51,717 nt of DNA from Acidimicrobiia bacterium (GTDB lineage Bacteria > Actinomycetota > Acidimicrobiia > Spongiisociales > UBA5794). How positions within the stretch are numbered: position 1 is the stretch's first letter; each line of letters begins with the position of its first letter. Both the position numbers and the translations under genes were made by a program. The stretch is taken from NCBI GenBank assembly GCA_030066265.1, contig JASJCF010000006.1:1-51717 (forward strand), in the 5' to 3' direction. Below the pieces are notes generated by a model. The model was given only the letters and a program-made list of their open reading frames with translations, made no database searches and was not told the DNA's origin. Of this stretch, positions 3,521 through 14,807 are shown piece by piece.

Positions 3521-4330
3521 CTAGTCACGAGCTCCGCGTCGACTCGCCCATGTCGATCGAATCAGCCGCCAGTAGGTCATCGTCTGGCGCGGTGTGGCCG
3601 CTTCCGATGGAGGCGTCTCTGCCGATCGTTGCGCCCCGGGACTTGGCGCTTCGGATACTGGCACCTCGGATACTGGCACCTCCGATCTTGGCGCCTCCGA
3701 TCGTGGCGCCTCCGACTGCTCGGACCGCAACTCGGCGAGTCGGCTTCGCAGGAAGGCCGCCTCGGTCTCGGCTTTGGCCGCGCGTTCCCTGGCCTCGGCG
3801 AGCTGCTGGCCTGCCTCGTGCAGGTTCCCCAGTTGGGACAGCATCTTGTTCCACGCGTCGACGGGCACCATCATCGTGTCCGTCGACGGCGTGGTGATTG
3901 TCCGATCGACTTCGTGTGCGCTTGCGTCGGGTTCATCCGTCGCCGAGTCGGGCGATTCCTCGGTGCGAACCTCGACGCTCGATGGCCGACTGGTCGCGTC
4001 GGCCCCTGGGACGCCGCCGTCATCGCGCGCCGCTCCGTCGGCGGCAGGCTCGAGATCGCGGCCCAACGCTTTGGCGCGGCGGTGGACTGCATCGAGGTCG
4101 ACCATGCGCAGGGCAAGGTCACCGTCGGACTCCAGGTAGGACGGGACGTCTGACTTCCGGGCCCATTTGCGAAGGGTGTTGACCGGGATGCCGGTCGCCG
4201 CCTCCGCTTCTCGCAGCGTCACCCATCGTGTCCCGGATCGCCGGCCGTGCGCTGACGGGCTCGGGCGACCGGGACGCGACGATGGGCCCGTCCGGAGCGC
4301 TTCGGTCTCCCACCTCGTCGTTGCATCCAT
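3521..4330 (-). CDS. HTH (MerR/excisionase-like) + disordered linker + coiled-coil protein
   Basis: VTLREAEAATGIPVNTLRKWARK HTH; heptad region LGNLHEAGQQLAEARERAAKAETEAAFLRSRLAELR; C-terminal YWRLIRSTW; TAGGAT 7 nt upstream. Confidence 0.75.
   Translation of the reverse strand: MDATTRWETEALRTGPSSRPGRPSPSAHGRRSGTRWVTLREAEAATGIPVNTLRKWARKSDVPSYLESDGDLALRMVDLDAVHRRAKALGRDLEPAADGAARDDGGVPGADATSRPSSVEVRTEESPDSATDEPDASAHEVDRTITTPSTDTMMVPVDAWNKMLSQLGNLHEAGQQLAEARERAAKAETEAAFLRSRLAELRSEQSEAPRSEAPRSEVPVSEVPVSEAPSPGAQRSAETPPSEAATPRQTMTYWRLIRSTWASRRGARD
3645..3719. repeat. 5 x 15-bp degenerate tandem repeat (coding SEAPR/SEVPV)
   Basis: ggcgcttcggatact / ggcacctcggatact / ggcacctccgatctt / ggcgcctccgatcgt / ggcgcctccgactgc. 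Confidence 0.9.
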
Positions 4331-4408: not shown

Positions 4409-5026
4409 GTGACTGCCCGTGATCCGAACATCGAGCGCGATGTGCGCGCCATCGTCGAACGCATCGTCGACGGCTTGGTCGACGACGACGGCGGAGCTGA
4501 ACGGACCGAGGACGACGACCGAGCCGGATCCGACGAGGCCGCTTCAGCCGATATCTCAGCCGATGTCTCGTCGATCGCCGTCGGGGCCGATCACGGCGGC
4601 TTTGCGCTCAAGGAACGCATCGCCTTTCGTCTCAGGGAGCAGGGATACGACGTGACCGACTGTGGCACGGATTCCACCGACGCCGTCGATTACCCGGACT
4701 TCGCCGTCGCCGTGGCGCGCCAGGTGGCCGATCACCGCGTCGACATCGGGATCATGATCGACGGGGCCGGCATCGGGTCGTCGATGGCTGCCAACAAGGT
4801 GCCCGGTGTGCGCGCGGCGCTGTGTTACGACGTGTCGACCGCTCGCAACGCGAGGGAGCACAATCATGCGAATCTTCTCACGCTCGGCGCCGGCCTCATC
4901 GGTGACAGCCTCGCCTGGCAGATCGTCGAGACCTTCCTCGGCACCGCCGTCGGGCCTGGCCGCCATGCGAGACGCGTCGCTCTCATCGACGCGCTCGACG
5001 CCCGCGAATACGGGGTGACGGCATGA
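4409..5026 (+). CDS. rpiB: RpiB/LacAB-family sugar-phosphate isomerase with N-terminal encapsulation peptide (BMC cargo)
   Basis: [36 protein letters not shown] motifs; about 55-aa N-terminal extension with helix [16 protein letters not shown]. Confidence 0.92.
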
Positions 5027-5871
5027 CGATGCGCGACATCTCCCGGGAACAGCTCGTCGAGCTGGTCACCAGAGAGGTCCTGGCTGCACTCGCCGAGCGA
5101 GCCGACATCCTCTCGAGTCCAGAGAAGCTGCGTCAGGTGGTCGCCAATGGTGCCGACCGAGTGGCGTACCACGGCGATGCCGAGGACGTACCAGTCGACC
5201 TCGCCAAGTACATCGACCACACGTTGCTGCGCCCCGACACGACGGCTGCGGACATCGACGAGCTGTGCGACGAAGCGCTCGAGTATGGATTCGCCTCCGT
5301 CTGCATCAACCCGACGTGGGTGAAGCGATCTGCCGAGCGACTGCGAGGCTCCGATGTGAAGGTGTGCACGGTCATCGGGTTCCCGCTCGGTGCGAACACC
5401 ACGCAAATCAAGGCGATGGAGGCCAGAAGGGCGCTGCGCGACGGCGCCCGCGAAGTCGACATGGTGATCAACATCGGAGCGCTCAAGTCGGCGATGCCCG
5501 AGGTGGTTCGCAAGGACATCGAGCAGGTGGTCGATGCGGCCCACGAGGGCGGTGCGATCTGCAAGGTGATCCTCGAGACGGCGCTCCTCACCGACGAGGA
5601 GAAGGTCATCGCCTCGGCACTCGCCAAGCAGGCGAAGGCCGACTACGTCAAGACCTCGACCGGCTTCGGTGGGGGAGGGGCAACGGTCTACGACGTGGCC
5701 CTCATGCGTGAGACGGTGGGGCCGGACATGGGTGTGAAGGCTTCTGGCGGCGTGCGCACGCTCGAGGATGCCGAGGACATGATCGCAGCGGGCGCAACGC
5801 GGATCGGTGCGTCGGCGGGAGTTCAGATCGTAGGCGGAACAGAAGGAGATGATGATGGCGAGCGGTATTGA
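5023..5871 (+). CDS. deoC: Deoxyribose-phosphate aldolase (DERA) with N-terminal encapsulation peptide
   Basis: [23 protein letters not shown], Schiff-base [23 protein letters not shown]; N-terminal [17 protein letters not shown]. Confidence 0.96.
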
Positions 5872-6481
5872 GCTGCGTTCCTATGTGTTTCTCGACAGCT
5901 TGCAGCCCCAGTACGCCGCCTTTCTCGGCACGACGGCGCAGGGCTTCCTCCCTCTGGCGGGGGAGGCATCACTGTTCGTGGAGGTCGCCCCTGGGATCGA
6001 AATCAACCGATTGACCGACATCGCCCTCAAGGCCACGACGGTCAAGCCCGGCATGCAGATCATCGAGCGGGTCTTCGGGCTCCTCGAGATCCACTCGCCG
6101 GAGCAGGCCGAGACGAGGGCAGCTGGCGCCGCCATCCTCGACGAGTTGGGGCTCTCGGAGGACGATCGGGTCAAGCCCCAGGTGCTGTCGAGCCAGATCA
6201 TCCGCCGGATCGACGATCATCACGCTCAGCTCGTGAATCGCATGCGTCACGGTCAGATGATCATTCCCGGCCAGACGCTGTACGTACTCGAATGCAACCC
6301 CGCTGCGTATGCCGCCCTCGCTGCGAACGAGGCCGAGAAGGCATCGAACATCAACGTGCTCGAGGTCCGTGCTTTCGGCGCCGTGGGGCGCGTCTATCTC
6401 GGCGGTGAGGAACAGGATGTCGAGGTCGGCTGGCGAGCAGCCGTCGATGCGCTCGAAGGTCTCACGGGCCGCACCACATGA
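5855..6481 (+). CDS. BMC-T shell protein, circularly permuted double-stacking type (CcmP/CsoS1D-like)
   Basis: [64 protein letters not shown]; SD AAGGAG at 5843-5848. Confidence 0.92.
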
Positions 6482-6530
6482 AGGATCACCACCAGGGAAT
6501 CGAAGCAATGGTCGAAACGGAGGAGCCCCA

Positions 6531-6833
6531 ATGGCAGATGCACTCGGGATGATCGAATGTCGCAGCTTCGCGGCGATGGTCGAAGCAGCGGACGCGATGG
6601 TGAAGGCCGCCAAGGTCGAACTCGTGGGATATGAGGAGACCGGCGGGGGCTATGTCACCGCTGTGGTGCGTGGCGATGTCGCGGCGGTCAAGGCCGCAGT
6701 CGACGCCGGTGTGCGCGGCAGCGAGAAGGTCGGCGAAGTGATTGCCACACACGTGATCGCACGTCCGCATGTGAACATCGATCTGGTATTGCCCCTCGGG
6801 CGTCAGGACGAGGCGAGCGACGCCGTCAGCTGA
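6531..6833 (+). CDS. BMC-H hexamer shell protein
   Basis: MADALGMIE..AADAMVKAAKV..GGGYVTAVVRGDVAAVKAA..HVIARPH (PduA/EutM/CcmK fold); strong SD GGAGGAG; true start ATG 6531. Confidence 0.97.
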   Translation: MADALGMIECRSFAAMVEAADAMVKAAKVELVGYEETGGGYVTAVVRGDVAAVKAAVDAGVRGSEKVGEVIATHVIARPHVNIDLVLPLGRQDEASDAVS

Positions 6834-6863: not shown

Positions 6864-7151
6864 ATGAATCTCGGCAAGGTGACCGGGACCCTCGTCGCCT
6901 CCCGCAAGGAACCTCTCCTCGAGGGTCTGCCGATGCTCGTCGTGCGCCAGCTCGACGAGACCGGCGAGCCCAGTGGCGGCTACGTCGTGGCGGTTGACTC
7001 GGTCGGCGCCGGTGTCGGCGAGGTGGTGCTGTATGCCTCTGGCAGCTCGGCGCGCCAAACCGCTGTCACCCGAGACAAGCCGTGCGATGCGGTGATCATG
7101 GCGATCGTCGACCAGTGGGACGTCGACGGCGAGACGGTGTTCGAGAAGTGA
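6864..7151 (+). CDS. BMC-P pentamer vertex protein 1 (EutN/CcmL family)
   Basis: [44 protein letters not shown]. Confidence 0.96.
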
Positions 7152-7152
7152 C

Positions 7153-8616
7153 ATGCCGGATCTGACCGACGCGGACGTCCAAGCGATCATCGCACGAGTC
7201 AAAGAGCGAGTCTCCGCGGGAGACATCGCAGGTCGCACCGCTCCTGCGCTCGAGGCCGCCCATGCCGTTGCGACCGAGGACGATGCCGTGGGTGACGGCG
7301 TCTTCCGCACCGTGGACGACGCCGTCGCAGCAGCCAAGCGCAGCTTCGCTGTGTATCGATCGCTCGGCCTCGACCGCCGGAAGGGGATCATCGAAGCGGT
7401 GCGGGTGGCCATGCGGCGCGAGAACGAGCGGCTCGCGTACATGGCCCGCCAGGAGACGGGCATCGGGCGAGCCGATGACAAGGTGATCAAGAACCTGCTC
7501 GTGATCGATCGAACCCCCGGCCCTGAGGATCTCGAGCCCAAGGTGGTCACGGGAGACCAGGGGATGATGGTCACCGAGTATGCGCCGTATGGGGTCATCG
7601 GAGCGATCACGCCGACCACCAATCCGACGTCGACGATCATCAACAACTCCATCGCGATCCTGTCGGCGGGCAACTCCGTGACGTTCAATGTCCACCCGAG
7701 CGCGCGACGCGTGAGCGTCGAGAACGTCAAGCTGCTCAATCGCGCAATCGTCGCGGCGGGAGGGCCCGCCGACCTCGTGACGTGCGTGGCGGTTCCCACC
7801 CTGGAGTCAGCGCAAGCGTTGATGCGCCATCCGGACGTCCGCGTCCTGCTGGTCACGGGTGGGCCGGGGGTGGTCAAGGAGGCGCTCCGGACGCCGAAGA
7901 AGGCCATCACCGCCGGGCCCGGCAACCCTCCCGCCGTCGTCGACCAGACGGCCGACATCGCAAAGGCGGCCAGGGACATCGTCTCCGGAGCGAGCTTCGA
8001 CAACAACATCATCTGCGTGGATGAGAAGACGACGATCGTGGTCGACTCGGTCGCCGATCGGCTCGTCCAGCACATGGCAGCCGCCGGCGGCTACCGGCTG
8101 AAGGAACACGAGCTGAAGCGGCTCGAGCGGGTGATCTTCAAGGAGATGGGGCCTCCGAACAAGCCAGGGGTGATCGATGGCCGATTCGTCGGCAAGGACG
8201 CCGCCGTGATCGCCAGCGAGATCGGGCTCAGTCTCCCTCCCGAGACCCGCCTCCTCGTGGCCGAGGTGCCGGTCGACCACAATCTCGTGTGGACCGAGCA
8301 GATGATGCCGGTCATGCCGGTGGTCCGCGTCAAGGACGTCGACACCGCCATCGATCTCGCTGTGCGTTCCGAGCACGGCTTCCGGCACACGGCATCGATC
8401 CACTCGACGAACGTCGATGCCATCACCAGGATGGCGAGAGCGATGAACTGTTCGATCTTCGTGGCGAACGGGCCGAACGTCGCCGGTCTGGGTGCAGACG
8501 GAGAGGGGTACACATCGTTCTCGATCGCCAGTCCCACCGGGGAGGGCTTGACGAGGCCGCGGACCTTCTCGAGAGAACGACGCGTCTCCGTCGTGGGAGC
8601 GCTGCGCATTGTCTGA
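7153..8616 (+). CDS. CoA-acylating aldehyde dehydrogenase (EutE/PduP family) with encapsulation peptide
   Basis: PYGVIGAITPTTNP, VTGGPGVV, AGPGNPP, FDNNIICVDEK (catalytic Cys), EQMMPV, EHGFRHTASIHS, TGEGLT; N-terminal LTDADVQAIIARVKERV. Confidence 0.96.
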   Translation: MPDLTDADVQAIIARVKERVSAGDIAGRTAPALEAAHAVATEDDAVGDGVFRTVDDAVAAAKRSFAVYRSLGLDRRKGIIEAVRVAMRRENERLAYMARQETGIGRADDKVIKNLLVIDRTPGPEDLEPKVVTGDQGMMVTEYAPYGVIGAITPTTNPTSTIINNSIAILSAGNSVTFNVHPSARRVSVENVKLLNRAIVAAGGPADLVTCVAVPTLESAQALMRHPDVRVLLVTGGPGVVKEALRTPKKAITAGPGNPPAVVDQTADIAKAARDIVSGASFDNNIICVDEKTTIVVDSVADRLVQHMAAAGGYRLKEHELKRLERVIFKEMGPPNKPGVIDGRFVGKDAAVIASEIGLSLPPETRLLVAEVPVDHNLVWTEQMMPVMPVVRVKDVDTAIDLAVRSEHGFRHTASIHSTNVDAITRMARAMNCSIFVANGPNVAGLGADGEGYTSFSIASPTGEGLTRPRTFSRERRVSVVGALRIV

Positions 8617-9214
8617 TCGCCTCGGAGGCCCTGCGATGGCGGTGTGGGAGTTCTCATCGATCGTGGCCGGTGTGCACAGCGCCGACCAGATCGCCAAGGG
8701 AAGCCCCGTGTCGGATCTCCTGACCGGCACGACGCACCCAGGGAAGTACGTCGTGATGGTCTCGGGCGACACCGCTGCTGTCGATGTCGCCCGCGACATC
8801 GTCTCGGGTCTGGATCGCGTCCCCATCGACACCCGATTCCTCCCCGACGTCGCTTCCGACGTGGTCGACGCCGTGCTGCGTGCTGATGACGTCATCGAGG
8901 CGGAGGGGGAGGCGATCGGAGTCGTCGAGACGGCCTCGGTGTCGTCGAGCGTCGATGCCGCCGACGCCGCAGTGAAGGCGGCACGGGTGACCCTATCGGC
9001 CATCCGGCTCGCCGACGGACTCGGTGGCAAGGCCTACCTCGTCGTGGACGGCGACGTCGGCGACGTCGAGGCGGCGGTGGCTGCTGCGTGCGAGCGAGCT
9101 GCGCCGAATCTGGTGGATGCCGTCGTCATCGCGCAACTCACGGCAGATCTGAGGGATGACCTCGCAGCGACGACCCGGTTCGTCGAGCGCCTGCAACGGC
9201 GCGGAGGTGGCTGA
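8609..9214 (+). CDS. BMC-T shell protein, single-layer PduT-like
   Basis: Two BMC domains: EFSSIVAGVHSADQIAK..PGKYVVMVSGD and AIGVVET..AADAAVKAARV..ADGLGGKAY..GDVGDVEAAV; TTG start overlaps the dehydrogenase stop. Confidence 0.9.
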   Translation: MSDRLGGPAMAVWEFSSIVAGVHSADQIAKGSPVSDLLTGTTHPGKYVVMVSGDTAAVDVARDIVSGLDRVPIDTRFLPDVASDVVDAVLRADDVIEAEGEAIGVVETASVSSSVDAADAAVKAARVTLSAIRLADGLGGKAYLVVDGDVGDVEAAVAAACERAAPNLVDAVVIAQLTADLRDDLAATTRFVERLQRRGGG

Positions 9215-9216
9215 TC

Positions 9217-9489
9217 GTGAAGCTCGGACGGGTCCGCGGTTCGGTGGTTGCCACGGTGAAGGATCCCGGCATGGTCGGCATGCGCATGCTGATCGTCCAG
9301 CCACTCGGCGACGAAGGGATCGACAGCGGGCAGTGCGTCGTCGCTGCCGATGCGACGGGGCAAGCCGGTCTCGGCGATCGCATCTACTACGTGTCGTCGC
9401 GCGAGGCCGCCGAGGCGATGGAACCCCGGTTCGTGCCGGTGGATCATGCCATCGTCGGCATCGTGGATGCGGTGGAGGTTCGACCGTGA
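9217..9489 (+). CDS. BMC-P pentamer vertex protein 2
   Basis: MKLGRVRGSVVATVKD..QAGLGDRI..SSREAA..PVDHAIVGIVD; SD GGAGG. Confidence 0.93.
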   Translation: MKLGRVRGSVVATVKDPGMVGMRMLIVQPLGDEGIDSGQCVVAADATGQAGLGDRIYYVSSREAAEAMEPRFVPVDHAIVGIVDAVEVRP

Positions 9490-9767
9490 GAGTCGGACGG
9501 GTGGTCGGCACCGTCGTTTCGACGATCAATCACCCCTTCTTCGACGGCGAGAGGCTCCTCGTGTGCCGAATCGTCGATCGAGACACCGACACCGGCACGT
9601 ATCTGATCTGCACCGACCGGGTCGGTGCGGGATCCGACGAGACCGTGTTGATCCTCGACGAGGGATCGTCCGCCAGACAGATCTACGACGTGCCGCACGG
9701 GCCGATCCGATCGGTCGTGGTCGGTGTCGTCGACGACGTGCACGAGGCGGAACTCGGCTCGGAGTGA
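9486..9767 (+). CDS. BMC-P pentamer vertex protein 3
   Basis: GTG 9486 overlaps the previous stop; MRVGRVVGTVVSTINH..DRVGAG..DEGSSARQI..PIRSVVVGVVD (C-terminal part of track ORF 9156-9767). Confidence 0.92.
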   Translation: MRVGRVVGTVVSTINHPFFDGERLLVCRIVDRDTDTGTYLICTDRVGAGSDETVLILDEGSSARQIYDVPHGPIRSVVVGVVDDVHEAELGSE

Positions 9768-10485: not shown

Positions 10486-11160
10486 TCAGTGCAGACGCGA
10501 GGCGGCGGCGTCGTCGAGCATCCACACCACCGACTCTCGTGCGGTGACGCGCCCTGCGGGGAGATCCTCACCTTGCGCAATCGCAGCGACGGCGTCGGCC
10601 TTTGCCTCCCCGGAGACGAGGAACAGCACGACGTCGGACTGACCGAGCAGATCGAACGTCGCCGTCAACCTCCACGCGTCGAGGCTCGGTACCAGGTTTG
10701 CGACATATGCGATGCTCTCGACGTCGAGTGCCTGGGTGCCGGGAAACAGCGACGCCGTGTGGCCATCGGCACCGATGCCGAGCATCGTGACCCTTCGCAC
10801 CCCCGGATCGACCATGCGCGGGACGATCTCGTCCGCATAGCCCTCCGCTGCGGTGTACGGGTTCGACAGCGTCGTGTCCGGTGCGATGAGGGAGAGGCCG
10901 ACGGGGTCGGCCAAGGTCATCCGAGCCATCCGCTGGTTGGACGCTTCGTCGTCGGGCGCCACCCAACGCTCATCGGGAAGCCATGCCTCGACATGGTCCC
11001 AAGCGAGCGGGCGGGCAGCGAGGAGGCGGTGCGTCGCCTCGGGCGTCGATCCGCCCGCGAGGCCCAGCAACAGCCGATCCGAGGCCTCCACCTCGGCCGC
11101 AACTGCGTTCGCCGCAGCAACAGCCAGATCCGCCGGATCCTCCGTGATGATGGTCTCCAT
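10486..11160 (-). CDS. pgl: 6-phosphogluconolactonase
   Basis: LAGGSTP, DERWVAPDDEASN, LGIGADGHTASLFPG, RLTATF, GEAKADAV; start ATG 11160. Confidence 0.93.
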   Translation of the reverse strand: METIITEDPADLAVAAANAVAAEVEASDRLLLGLAGGSTPEATHRLLAARPLAWDHVEAWLPDERWVAPDDEASNQRMARMTLADPVGLSLIAPDTTLSNPYTAAEGYADEIVPRMVDPGVRRVTMLGIGADGHTASLFPGTQALDVESIAYVANLVPSLDAWRLTATFDLLGQSDVVLFLVSGEAKADAVAAIAQGEDLPAGRVTARESVVWMLDDAAASRLH

Positions 11161-11166
11161 GACCCG

Positions 11167-11190
11167 ACGATACCGAGCGGCGGGTACGGT
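11167..11190. promoter_or_regulatory. Back-to-back leaderless -10 elements in a 37-bp divergent gap
   Basis: TATCGT (minus, 11167-11172) 6 nt before the pgl ATG; TACGGT (plus, 11185-11190) 7 nt before ATG 11198. Confidence 0.65.
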
Positions 11191-11197
11191 GGGGAGC

Positions 11198-12130
11198 ATG
11201 GCGGCCCCGCTGAGCGACGAGGCAGCCGATTGGCTGCGGGGTGAGGATCCCTCCATCGATTGGCAGCTCGAGCGCGACCTGGACGGCTCGGCCGCGCCAG
11301 TATGGAAACGGACGCGCTCGCGGGTTGCGACGGAGGGATGGGGGGAGGACCTCCTCGCTCGTCAGGACGACGAGGGGACCTGGGGCGGTGGGCTCTACAC
11401 CCCGAAGTGGACCTCCACGAACTACACCCTGCTCCTCCTACGCCGTCTCGGGCTCGACGAACGCAACGAGCAGGCAATCGCCGGGTGCCGACGACTGCTG
11501 GACGACGCTGCGTGGGTGGAGGGCGGCGTGAGCTACTGGCGCTCGCATCGATACGCAGAGCGTTGCGTCAACGGCATGGTCCTGTCGGTGTGCTCGTACT
11601 TCGCCGTCGACGATTCCAGGATCGACTCCATCGCTGAGCTTCTCACTTCGACTGGCGTCCCCGGTGGTGGATGGAACTGCGAGGACTACCGAGGTGGCAC
11701 GCACGCATCGTTCCACACCACGATCTCCGTCCTCGAGGGCCTGACGCTGTGGCGCCATCGCACCGGTCGCCGCGAGGCCGATGCTGCGATCGATGCGGCG
11801 CACGAGACGCTGCTCCAGCATCGCCTGTATCGCTCGCATCGGACGGGAGAGGTCATCGACCGCGAATGGCTCTCACCCCACTTCCCGCCGCGATGGCACT
11901 ACGACGTCCTGCGAGGGCTCGACCACTTCCGGGCAGTCGGCCATGACCGGGATCCTCGGCTGTCCGATGCCGTCGAGGCACTCGTGGCCAAGCAGCGTCC
12001 CGACGGCACGTGGCCAAAGGGTCGGCGCTACGGCGGTGTCGAGTTCTTCCCGATCGAGACCGAACGTGCCAGAGGCCGCTGGAACACGATGCGCGCCCTC
12101 CGGGTCCTGCGGTGGTGGAACGATGCCTGA
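11198..12130 (+). CDS. Prenyltransferase/squalene-cyclase-like alpha-alpha toroid hypothetical protein
   Basis: QW-like repeats (LLARQDDEGTWGG, KQRPDGTW), GGWNCE, FPPRWHYDVLRGLD, RWNTMRALRVL. Confidence 0.7.
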   Translation: MAAPLSDEAADWLRGEDPSIDWQLERDLDGSAAPVWKRTRSRVATEGWGEDLLARQDDEGTWGGGLYTPKWTSTNYTLLLLRRLGLDERNEQAIAGCRRLLDDAAWVEGGVSYWRSHRYAERCVNGMVLSVCSYFAVDDSRIDSIAELLTSTGVPGGGWNCEDYRGGTHASFHTTISVLEGLTLWRHRTGRREADAAIDAAHETLLQHRLYRSHRTGEVIDREWLSPHFPPRWHYDVLRGLDHFRAVGHDRDPRLSDAVEALVAKQRPDGTWPKGRRYGGVEFFPIETERARGRWNTMRALRVLRWWNDA

Positions 12131-12791
12131 GCGCCGGCCCGAACCGCTGATCATCGAATCGGCACACGGGCCGGTCTCGGCGGCCATCACAGGGCCTCAC
12201 GACTCCGATTTCCCTGCCCTGTTGCTCGCACACGGCGCAGGGGCAGGCATGGCTCACCCCTGGATGGTTTCGCTCCAGGACCGCCTCGCCACCGCAGGGG
12301 CTCGGGTGATGACCTTCAACTACGCGTACACCGAGGCCGGTCGCCGCTCTCCCGACCGCCTCGAGAAGCTCCTCGACGTGCACGAAGCAGCCGCCGACGT
12401 GATCTCAGGCCGCGCCGGAATCCCCGTGCTCGCCGGCAAGTCGATGGGTGGGCGCGTGGCGAGCCACCTCGTGTCACAGGGCCGTGCCGAAGCAGCCGGC
12501 TTGGCGTATCTGGGATATCCGTTGGTGGCGATGGGCAAGACCGAGCCGAGATCGACGGACCATCTCGACGTCATCACCGCCCCCCAGCTGTTCGTGACGG
12601 GCGATCGGGACCGAATGGGCCCCATCGACCTGATCAGCGACGTCGCAGACCGCCTACCGGCCGGCGAGGTCGTGGCCGTTCCCGATGGAGACCACTCGTT
12701 CGTCCCTCGCAAGTCGTCAGGACTCACCCTCGACGATTCATTCGACCTCGTGGTGCGGGAAGTGATCCAGTGGCTGCGGGACCTCACCTGA
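12123..12791 (+). CDS. Alpha/beta hydrolase (KANL3/Tex30-like)
   Basis: AHGAGAGM, GKSMGGR nucleophile elbow, GYPL, GDRD, GDHSF; ATG 12123. Confidence 0.88.
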   Translation: MPERRPEPLIIESAHGPVSAAITGPHDSDFPALLLAHGAGAGMAHPWMVSLQDRLATAGARVMTFNYAYTEAGRRSPDRLEKLLDVHEAAADVISGRAGIPVLAGKSMGGRVASHLVSQGRAEAAGLAYLGYPLVAMGKTEPRSTDHLDVITAPQLFVTGDRDRMGPIDLISDVADRLPAGEVVAVPDGDHSFVPRKSSGLTLDDSFDLVVREVIQWLRDLT

Positions 12792-13774: not shown

Positions 13775-14224
13775 TCAGCCACGGTTCCGGTCGAGTTCGA
13801 CCACCTTGCGGAGTCTCCGCACGTGCCGCTCCTCACCGCTGAACCGCGCATCGAGGTAGGCGTCGGCGATCTCCGTCGCCGTCGTGGGTCCGATCACTCG
13901 CGCCCCGAGGGCGAGCACGTTCATGTCGTCGTGTTCCACGGCCTGGTGCGCCGTGTAGTGGTCGTGCACCACCGCGCTGCGTGCGCCGGTGATCTTGTTC
14001 GCTGCGATCGATGCACCCGCACCCGAGCCACACACCACGATTCCCTTGTCCGCCTTCCCGGCGACCACGGCTCTGGCGACGGCTGCGGCATAGTCCGGGT
14101 AGTCGACCGGCTCCGTCGAGTCGGTGCCGACGTCGATCGTGACGAACCCACGTTGCTCGAGATGGGCGAGGAGCTCCTGCTTGAGCGGGTAGCCGGCGTG
14201 GTCAGCACCGATGACGACGCGCAC
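13775..14224 (-). CDS. rpiB: Ribose-5-phosphate isomerase B, canonical cytosolic paralog
   Basis: IGADHAG, VDYPDY, VCGSGAG (catalytic Cys), EHDDMNVL, ERHVRR; GTG 14224 with SD GAGAGG; no N-terminal extension. Confidence 0.94.
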   Translation of the reverse strand: MRVVIGADHAGYPLKQELLAHLEQRGFVTIDVGTDSTEPVDYPDYAAAVARAVVAGKADKGIVVCGSGAGASIAANKITGARSAVVHDHYTAHQAVEHDDMNVLALGARVIGPTTATEIADAYLDARFSGEERHVRRLRKVVELDRNRG

Positions 14225-14303
14225 GTGAATACCTCTCGGTCGACGGAGGAGTGAGCGTAGCCGCAGGCGGATGGTCATCGGTGTGCCCGGTACCCTCCCG
14301 ATC

Positions 14304-14807
14304 GTGAAGCGATGGTTGGTGCTCGTGTTGGTGGCTTGTGGAGCATGCTCATCCGGTGTCGAGGCGCCCGATCCCGCGCCAGTCAGCCAGGTGTGCACGC
14401 AGACGTGGTGCATGGACGTTCCCGACGGTTGGGGAACCGAGGTCGGCGAGAACTACGTGGCGTTCAACCACGACGCCGATCCCGACGGGACCTTCCTCAC
14501 CGGCAACGTCGTCGACATGGAGGCCATCGTCACCTCTGCCGGGGGAACCTGGCCGGCGACGACGGAGGACGTCGTGCGGTCGTTCTGGGCGTTGCTCGAG
14601 GACGCCGAGGAGGGCTCGCTGCAGCGAACACAGCGCCAGGTCGGGGGCGCCATCCGGTCATGGGGCAGCCACTCCACCGGGGACATGTGGTACGTGCTCG
14701 TCCCGGTCGAGGGATCGACGGGGATCGGAGTCGAGATCCGTGGCCCGAACGAGACGTGGGAGCGCCACGCAGACATCGTCTTCCCGTCGATCGCTCCGAG
14801 GCCCTGA
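14304..14807 (+). CDS. Hypothetical lipoprotein (PsbP/Mog1-like fold possible)
   Basis: MKRWLVLVLVACGAC signal/lipobox; VPDGW motif; TACCCT 7 nt upstream. Confidence 0.7.
   Translation: MKRWLVLVLVACGACSSGVEAPDPAPVSQVCTQTWCMDVPDGWGTEVGENYVAFNHDADPDGTFLTGNVVDMEAIVTSAGGTWPATTEDVVRSFWALLEDAEEGSLQRTQRQVGGAIRSWGSHSTGDMWYVLVPVEGSTGIGVEIRGPNETWERHADIVFPSIAPRP

Follow-up and report, generated by a model that had tools for sequence, protein, structure and literature searches.

[quoted passage not shown] SPU compartments have been described in Asgard archaea too, in a 2025 preprint (PMC12747264) which, in the excerpt used here, states that the role of RPI "remains unexplored". Dwyer, Sutter and Kerfeld (Commun Biol 2024; PMC11585597) reported, in the parts of their paper drawn on here, that Cys66 of the E. 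coli enzyme is replaced by Asp in "all SPU RPIs" and that His99 is kept. An SPU6 RPI from Chloroflexi had negligible ribose-5-phosphate (R5P) isomerase activity beside the E. coli control, and it co-purified with deoxyribose-5-phosphate aldolase (DERA) in a ratio of about 1:1 (PMC11585597). The Vmax and Km of the DERA-RPI complex were the same as those of DERA alone, so that no catalytic benefit was seen; the published assays used 5 nM enzyme (PMC11585597). Two proposals are in print: that RPI has lost its native function and packs the core, or that it acts on sugar phosphates that were not assayed (PMC11585597). The same source records RPI-DERA fusions in SPU3, a DERA extension made up of a helix plus strands, several SPU subtypes that have TPI and RPI together, and the lack of RPI in SPU5 and in 11 of 29 SPU4 loci, which makes it dispensable for some SPU compartments. 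The sections of that paper used here give no pathway connecting R5P and DERA within the shell. Our search of the literature on microcompartment RPI found nothing beyond PMC11585597 and PMC12747264.

The catalytic residues of RpiB have been assigned, according to the parts of PMC4783025 and PMC3755991 used here, as follows: Arg residues bind the phosphate, Cys abstracts the C2 proton and Thr transfers protons between O1 and O2. E. coli His99 and M. tuberculosis His138 are credited with the opening of the furanose ring (PMC4783025). M. tuberculosis RpiB (1USL, 2VVO), with Glu75 as its base, is another natural RpiB that lacks the Cys.

We analyzed a 51,717-nucleotide stretch of an Acidimicrobiia metagenome-assembled genome (MAG), hereafter the window, which is its contig 10; the MAG comprises 2.35 Mb and is 90.9% complete. 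The + strand carries, in order, genes for RPI, DERA, a shell-like protein, BMC-H, BMC-P, an aldehyde dehydrogenase (AldDH), BMC-T and two more BMC-P proteins. Judged by this gene content, the locus is that of an SPU microcompartment with the usual BMC-P triplet. The start of the DERA gene (5023..5871, + strand) overlaps the stop of the RPI gene (4409..5026, + strand) by 4 nt. DERA has an N-terminal extension of about 60 aa and matches TIGR00126 (deoC) over residues 60-269 with 290.3 bits against a cut-off of 117.3; its D146, K210 and K239 are invariant in an alignment of 51 sequences. The consensus of the DERA extension in related loci from other phyla includes a CxxC pair, which the DERA of the window lacks. 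Prediction of a complex between DERA and RPI gave a score of 0.01 against a mark of 0.32, which is evidence neither way.

The shell-like protein encoded next (5849..6481, + strand; 210 aa) has a weak PF00936 match at aa 146-202. A homologue lies directly after DERA in 37 related loci, with 65-87% identity in 33 and 41-57% in 4, so that few proteins of the locus are better conserved; the shell-like protein probably represents a BMC-domain trimer (BMC-T) of tandem or permuted type. The remaining genes, all on the + strand, encode a BMC-H hexamer shell protein (ORF 6309..6833, domain at about nt 6540-6767; PF00936, E 1.6e-28), the first of three BMC-P pentamer proteins (6864..7151; PF03319, E 6e-29), an acylating aldehyde dehydrogenase of the metabolosome core (7153..8616; PF00171, and NF011927 at 630 bits against a cut-off of 403), a tandem-domain BMC-T shell protein (8609..9214; PF00936, E 4.6e-26, in two stretches), the second BMC-P protein (9217..9489; PF03319, E 4.6e-23) and the third (9489..9767), given here as the domain-bearing part of ORF 9156-9767, in which PF03319 matches aa 112-193 (E 1e-18).

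Several genes around this operon were also recorded. Divergent from the RPI gene is an ORF of 269 aa (3521-4330, - strand) that has no match in Pfam or NCBIfam, is kept at the same place and on the same strand in four related loci (L004, L005, L006 and L034; 43-49% identity), and contains a helix-turn-helix-like stretch together with SEAPRSE-type repeats; we regard it as a candidate operon regulator. A 6-phosphogluconolactonase-family gene (10486-11256, - strand) and an Abhydrolase_11 gene (11781-12791, + strand) lie downstream of the shell genes, and both recur in L006 (downstream, as in the window), L008 and L010. Searches of the whole 90.9% complete MAG found no DeoB-type phosphopentomutase (TIGR01696) and no PYNP_C domain, so that the usual route to deoxyribose-5-phosphate (dR5P) is not evident in it. 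The genome has one PNP_UDP_1 gene, on contig C144, and a second DeoC-family gene, on contig C146.

The encapsulated RPI matches PF02502 (E 1.3e-51) over profile positions 1-138 of 138. Its AF2 model, with a mean pLDDT of 88.9, consists of a predicted encapsulation-peptide helix at residues 8-25 (about nt 4430-4483, + strand; pLDDT 83-92), a disordered or low-confidence linker at residues 26-54 (pLDDT 53-66) and an RpiB domain at residues 55-201. The hydrophobic moment peaks at residues 7-21, and the sequence of the N-terminal helix is common to close relatives. The domain superimposes on C. thermocellum RpiB (3he8) with a TM score of 0.96 and an rmsd of 0.9 Å at 48% identity, and in an ungapped HMMER alignment D118 falls on Cys65 of that protein.

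A sequence-only reading of the window had placed an Asp, codon 4760-4762, at the position of the catalytic Cys and had noted that neither this Cys nor the M. tuberculosis-type Glu base was present. The ORF confirms both points. GAC is read at 4760..4762 (+ strand) as residue 118 of ORF 4409-5026, corresponding to E. coli Cys66, within the motif D118-G-A120-G-I-G-S124. The position of the Glu base was read from the GGSGxGE rows P0250 and P0266 of our alignment, and Ser124 occupies it; with Asp118 at the Cys position, the encapsulated RPI therefore has neither known base. The residues that define a canonical RpiB are absent (D118 for Cys66, A120 for Thr68, the Thr/Ser proton shuttle), and the M. 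tuberculosis-type GGSGxGE is likewise absent, the sequence being DGAGIGS. Four features of the SPU RPI family were found: PF02502, Asp at Cys66 with His99 kept, an encapsulation-peptide helix followed by a linker, and a neighborhood of DERA, AldDH and shell genes.

The resemblance to the Chloroflexi SPU6 system, as presented in the parts of PMC11585597 used here, is close. Both RPIs have Asp at Cys66, the kept His99, and an encapsulation-peptide helix with an unstructured linker, and both loci have an adjoining extended DERA, AldDH, BMC-H, BMC-T and a BMC-P triplet. The window differs in its host, an Acidimicrobiia bacterium, in its shorter linker (about 30 aa versus about 75) and probably in its subtype, as the Actinobacteria rows in part 1 of Supplementary Dataset S1 are filed under SPU3. 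An SPU3 RPI-DERA chimera from Verrucomicrobia ADurb.Bin018 (PMC11585597) likewise has an RPI domain followed by a DERA domain, whereas in the window the genes are separate, with the 4-nt overlap, and RPI has an encapsulation peptide of its own. E. coli RpiB/AlsB (1NN4) and C. thermocellum RpiB (3HE8) share the fold of the window RPI, which retains the equivalents of E. coli Asp9, His10, His99, Asn100, Arg133, His134 and Arg137 but differs from the E. coli enzyme by Cys66 to Asp, Thr68 to Ala, Ser at the hydrophobic position 72, and the N-terminal targeting extension. It is also distinct from M. tuberculosis RpiB, both by Ser124 at the Glu position and by a TIGR02133 (RPI_actino) score of 130.1, below the cut-off of 168.2. 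CcmM and the inactive, encapsulation-peptide-bearing AldDH of some GRM loci, both cited in PMC11585597, likewise combine an enzyme fold and an encapsulation signal with a missing catalytic residue; SPU RPI differs from these in that hardly any variation is seen, from phylum to phylum, in the replacement residue or in the rest of its pocket.

The novelty that the sequence-only reading had implied for the Asp-for-Cys change does not stand, because PMC11585597 states the change for all SPU RPIs. The substitution and both of its interpretations were already known from that 2024 paper, and the protein of the window is a new instance of a described family. What we add concerns the signature residues, the linkage of the Asp type to shell genes and its origin; some of the residue-level points, the Thr-to-Ala change for one, may already be listed in the supplements of PMC11585597.

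The Cys-type RpiB paralog lies at 13775..14224 on the - strand (PF02502, E 1.3e-52); it has 149 aa and no extension, and it is the presumed housekeeping R5P isomerase. The claim that this second RpiB reads GIVVCGSGAGA, with its Cys codon at 14030-14032, was borne out by the ORF: the longer ORF 13775-14413 (- strand) contains GIVVCGSGAGASIAANK, and the Cys is residue 65 counted from the GTG start at 14224. This Cys aligns with Cys66 of E. coli (1nn4, 2vvr). The paralog holds both canonical residues, C65 and S67, and has Ala at the M. tuberculosis Glu position. Among its 120 closest relatives, CGSGAG[AG] is found in 118, and 101 are exactly 149 aa long; as this is the length obtained from the 14224 start, the gene does appear to lack a targeting peptide, as had been claimed. 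Its use as an internal control is also sound, since in the 90.9% complete genome it is the sole PF02502 gene other than the encapsulated RPI and no match to RpiA was found. The closest relatives of both paralogs come from MAGs named Acidimicrobiia or Actinomycetota. The paralog and 119 of 120 close relatives have VEHD where E. coli has RQHN (Arg97 to Val, Asn100 to Asp), which is, as far as this alignment goes, a lineage-wide oddity of the presumed housekeeping enzyme.

The replaced pocket is strongly conserved in the Asp type. DGAGIGS is present in all 121 close relatives, three of these sequences being the window's own. The 150 best cluster representatives at 50% identity comprised 119 of the Asp type (DGAGIGS), 13 of the Cys type and 3 of the Gly/Glu type, and 15 were left unparsed by the pattern. 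In order to compare individual positions, 174 Asp-type domains, non-redundant at 80% identity, were set against 18 Cys-type rows. The position of E. coli Thr68 (A120) is Ala in 153 of the 174 Asp-type domains, versus Thr in 14 and Ser in 4 of the Cys-type rows. The M. tuberculosis Glu position (S124), which is the catalytic Glu in the Glu type and Met, Ile or Val in the Cys type, is Ser in 173/174, and residue 147 is Asn in 157/174 where Cys-type rows have Leu, Ala or Met. D61, H151, R185, H186 and R189 were each found in 174/174, H62 in 173/174 and N152 in 170/174; the ring-opening histidine positions, equivalent to E. coli His99 and M. tuberculosis His138, are both kept in all 174. Asp-type domains are variable where M. 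tuberculosis has the Arg113 phosphate clamp (Gly in 71, Arg in 47 and Lys in 23 of 174); the RPI of the window has Gly162 there. At least 95% conservation was reached by 12 of 16 pocket positions and by 15 of the 129 positions outside the pocket (Fisher p 1.8e-7), for a pocket list that we compiled ourselves, in part from PMC4783025 and PMC3755991.

The Cys-to-Asp change is thus, on these alignments, part of a clade-wide remodelled motif, D118/A120/S124/N147. Since both the pocket and its replacement residues are near-invariant, the pocket looks selected rather than decayed, and the contrast between the conserved His and Arg residues and the replaced Cys and Thr suggests that the binding and ring-opening parts survive and that the two isomerisation-specific residues have been replaced. 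Part of the Arg and His conservation could stem from the dimer interface, at which the site of RpiB is located. Domain identity to the proteins of the window was 75-76% for the Asp type versus 80-81% for the housekeeping paralog in three pairs, presumably from the same genomes, and by this measure the Asp-type domain evolves only slightly faster than the paralog. One cluster representative, P0236, reads DGSGIGM: Asp replaces the Cys, both the Ser shuttle and the hydrophobic residue are retained, and residue 147 is Arg. This sequence may represent an intermediate, or else a variant that arose on its own.

The related loci, which were selected for RPI and come from many phyla, are of the Asp type in 76 of 80 cases and of the Cys type in four. 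For 75 Asp-type loci, the surroundings were tallied, with shell genes counted within 8 kb of RPI: DERA lies at most 1.5 kb downstream on the same strand in 56, shell genes are present in 38, DERA occurs without a shell gene in 22, and 15 have neither. Neither DERA nor a shell gene occurs in any of the four Cys-type loci. In-frame RPI-DERA fusions were found in 5 of the 80 loci (L016, L018, L033, L036 and L037). We considered whether an Asp-type RPI can exist outside microcompartments, given 37 loci with no shell gene within 8 kb. All 31 genomes tested, in which the Asp-type RPI has no nearby shell gene, encode PF00936 shell proteins elsewhere, whereas the same search matched in only 2 of 14 control genomes. 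For the 31 genomes covered, a free-living Asp-type RPI is therefore rejected, and the Asp type is strictly tied to compartment genes. Of 12 loci without DERA beside RPI, four lie near nucleoside genes (L060, L048, L074 and L077) and eight have unrelated neighbors. In L060, RPI is accompanied by pyrimidine-nucleoside phosphorylase, a nucleoside transporter and purine-nucleoside phosphorylase; an adenosine deaminase lies by RPI in L048 and L077, and a deoxynucleoside kinase in L074.

Phylogenetic trees were constructed from 141 columns of this short domain, with the four signature columns masked and with a Cys-type sample that is small and skewed to the near relatives of the query. Within that scope, a FastTree branch with a support of 0.97 sets apart 194 of 197 Asp-type rows, and IQ-TREE in its -fast mode placed only 157/197 on one side. 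The free quick tree requires 8 state changes; a tree constrained to hold all Asp-type sequences together had a log-likelihood 13.9 higher and was not rejected by the AU test (p-AU 0.65). The free searches disagree, and it is the constrained test alone that favours one origin for the Asp type, which stays poorly resolved.

We give a slightly better than even chance to the reading that the RPI of the window is an ordinary SPU RPI, that is, a lumenal partner of DERA which is not an R5P isomerase but whose pocket has kept a function in sugar-phosphate binding. It would be an RpiB-derived protein with an N-terminal encapsulation peptide, co-translated with DERA and located in the lumen of the microcompartment. 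It has lost the two residues specific to aldose-ketose isomerisation, the Cys base (to Asp) and the Thr/Ser proton shuttle (to Ala), and with both of these gone it would not be the R5P isomerase of the cell, a job that the Cys-type paralog 9 kb away would take over. Its main role would be physical, in binding DERA, as has been demonstrated in the homolog, and in helping to pack the enzyme core. The sequence-only reading had offered two options, a substrate or mechanism other than the usual one and a scaffold role beside DeoC; the 1:1 complex with DERA and the negligible R5P activity of the Chloroflexi SPU6 protein (parts of PMC11585597) lend the scaffold arm experimental support, in a relative, and the other arm is weighed below as a rival. 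The activity and complex data come from that one SPU6 Chloroflexi pair, which belongs to another phylum and probably to another subtype. Packaging alone leaves the near-invariance of Asp118, Ser124 and Asn147 unexplained. The conservation data suggest that the pocket probably binds a ligand, which may be a furanose or linear sugar phosphate, most plausibly dR5P, the substrate of DERA, or G3P, a product.

The invariance of the replacement, together with the co-conserved new polar residues Ser124 and Asn147 and the fully kept ring-opening histidine positions, is also what recommends the view that RPI is a working enzyme. Asp118 would then be a general base acting with Ser124, Asn147 and the two histidines, either as an opener or presenter of the dR5P furanose, which would pass the aldehyde form to the bound DERA where enzymes are crowded to very high concentrations within the shell, or as an isomerase of an unassayed sugar phosphate (a triose, a tetrose or other). 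We hold this to be possible, though on the doubtful side. As an isomerase substrate dR5P drops out: it lacks the 2-OH and is hence not isomerisable. For a ring opener, the excerpts of PMC5975929 used here supply arguments in both directions, as dR5P is given as 99.8% furanose and DERA as having no equivalent of the ring-opening His, but phosphorylated furanoses open quickly, R5P at 40-100 per s, and a limitation of DERA by this step is not what the authors expect. The unchanged Vmax and Km of the DERA-RPI complex (PMC11585597) also count against it, but at the published 5 nM enzyme a ring-opening helper would not show. A carboxylate base does work in this fold, as M. tuberculosis Glu75 demonstrates (PMC4783025), but the Thr/Ser shuttle is gone from RPI, and LacB T67A is about 20-fold less active (PMC3755991). 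The variable Arg113 clamp position and the absence of RPI from some SPU subtypes (PMC11585597) speak against a working enzyme as well. RPI was also considered as a possible stand-in for triose-phosphate isomerase (TPI), which several subtypes have alongside it (PMC11585597).

That RPI is still an R5P isomerase, with another base as in M. tuberculosis, is very unlikely in our judgment, although the annotation points that way. Both paralogs exceed the cut-off of the TIGR01120 rpiB equivalog (138.65), the encapsulated protein with 143.8 and the Cys-type protein with 151.1; relatives are named 'ribose 5-phosphate isomerase B' in public sources, and the substrate-binding residues are all kept. Set against these are the negligible activity of the homolog beside the E. 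coli control and, in the parts of PMC11585597 used here, the lack of any pathway that would join R5P to DERA within the shell, as well as Ala in place of the Thr/Ser shuttle and the separate Cys-type RpiB of this genome. We consider it even less probable that RPI is the non-catalytic half of a heteromer in the manner of LacA, with a partner subunit bringing the Cys. LacA likewise has Asp at this position and LacB supplies the Cys (PMC11585597), and sites in the RpiB family are formed across the subunit interface (PMC3755991). Nevertheless, the sole Cys-type partner has no targeting peptide and lies outside the locus, Asp-type genes adjoin DERA and not a second PF02502 gene, and both paralogs fall far under all LacA and LacB cut-offs of NCBIfam. 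LacA/LacB identity was rejected, with a best LacA score of 105.4 against a cut-off of 164, a best LacB score of 112.6 (another at 110.5) against 234, and no second PF02502 gene in the locus. A D-erythrulose-4-phosphate isomerase of the DerI type was rejected as well (NF051858, 98.7 against a cut-off of 240).

Because the Asp type passes TIGR01120, automatic annotation names it 'ribose 5-phosphate isomerase B', and the name misleads: the encapsulated copy is not to be counted as the pentose-phosphate isomerase of the cell. The published picture of SPU RPI is unchanged, and the purpose of the pocket is a question for the whole SPU RPI family rather than for the window alone. If RPI should prove to be a working enzyme, it would be not a dead scaffold but an undiscovered DERA-bound enzyme. 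A substituted pocket that is near-invariant across phyla argues for binding or catalysis under selection, and this is a reason to try ligands other than R5P.
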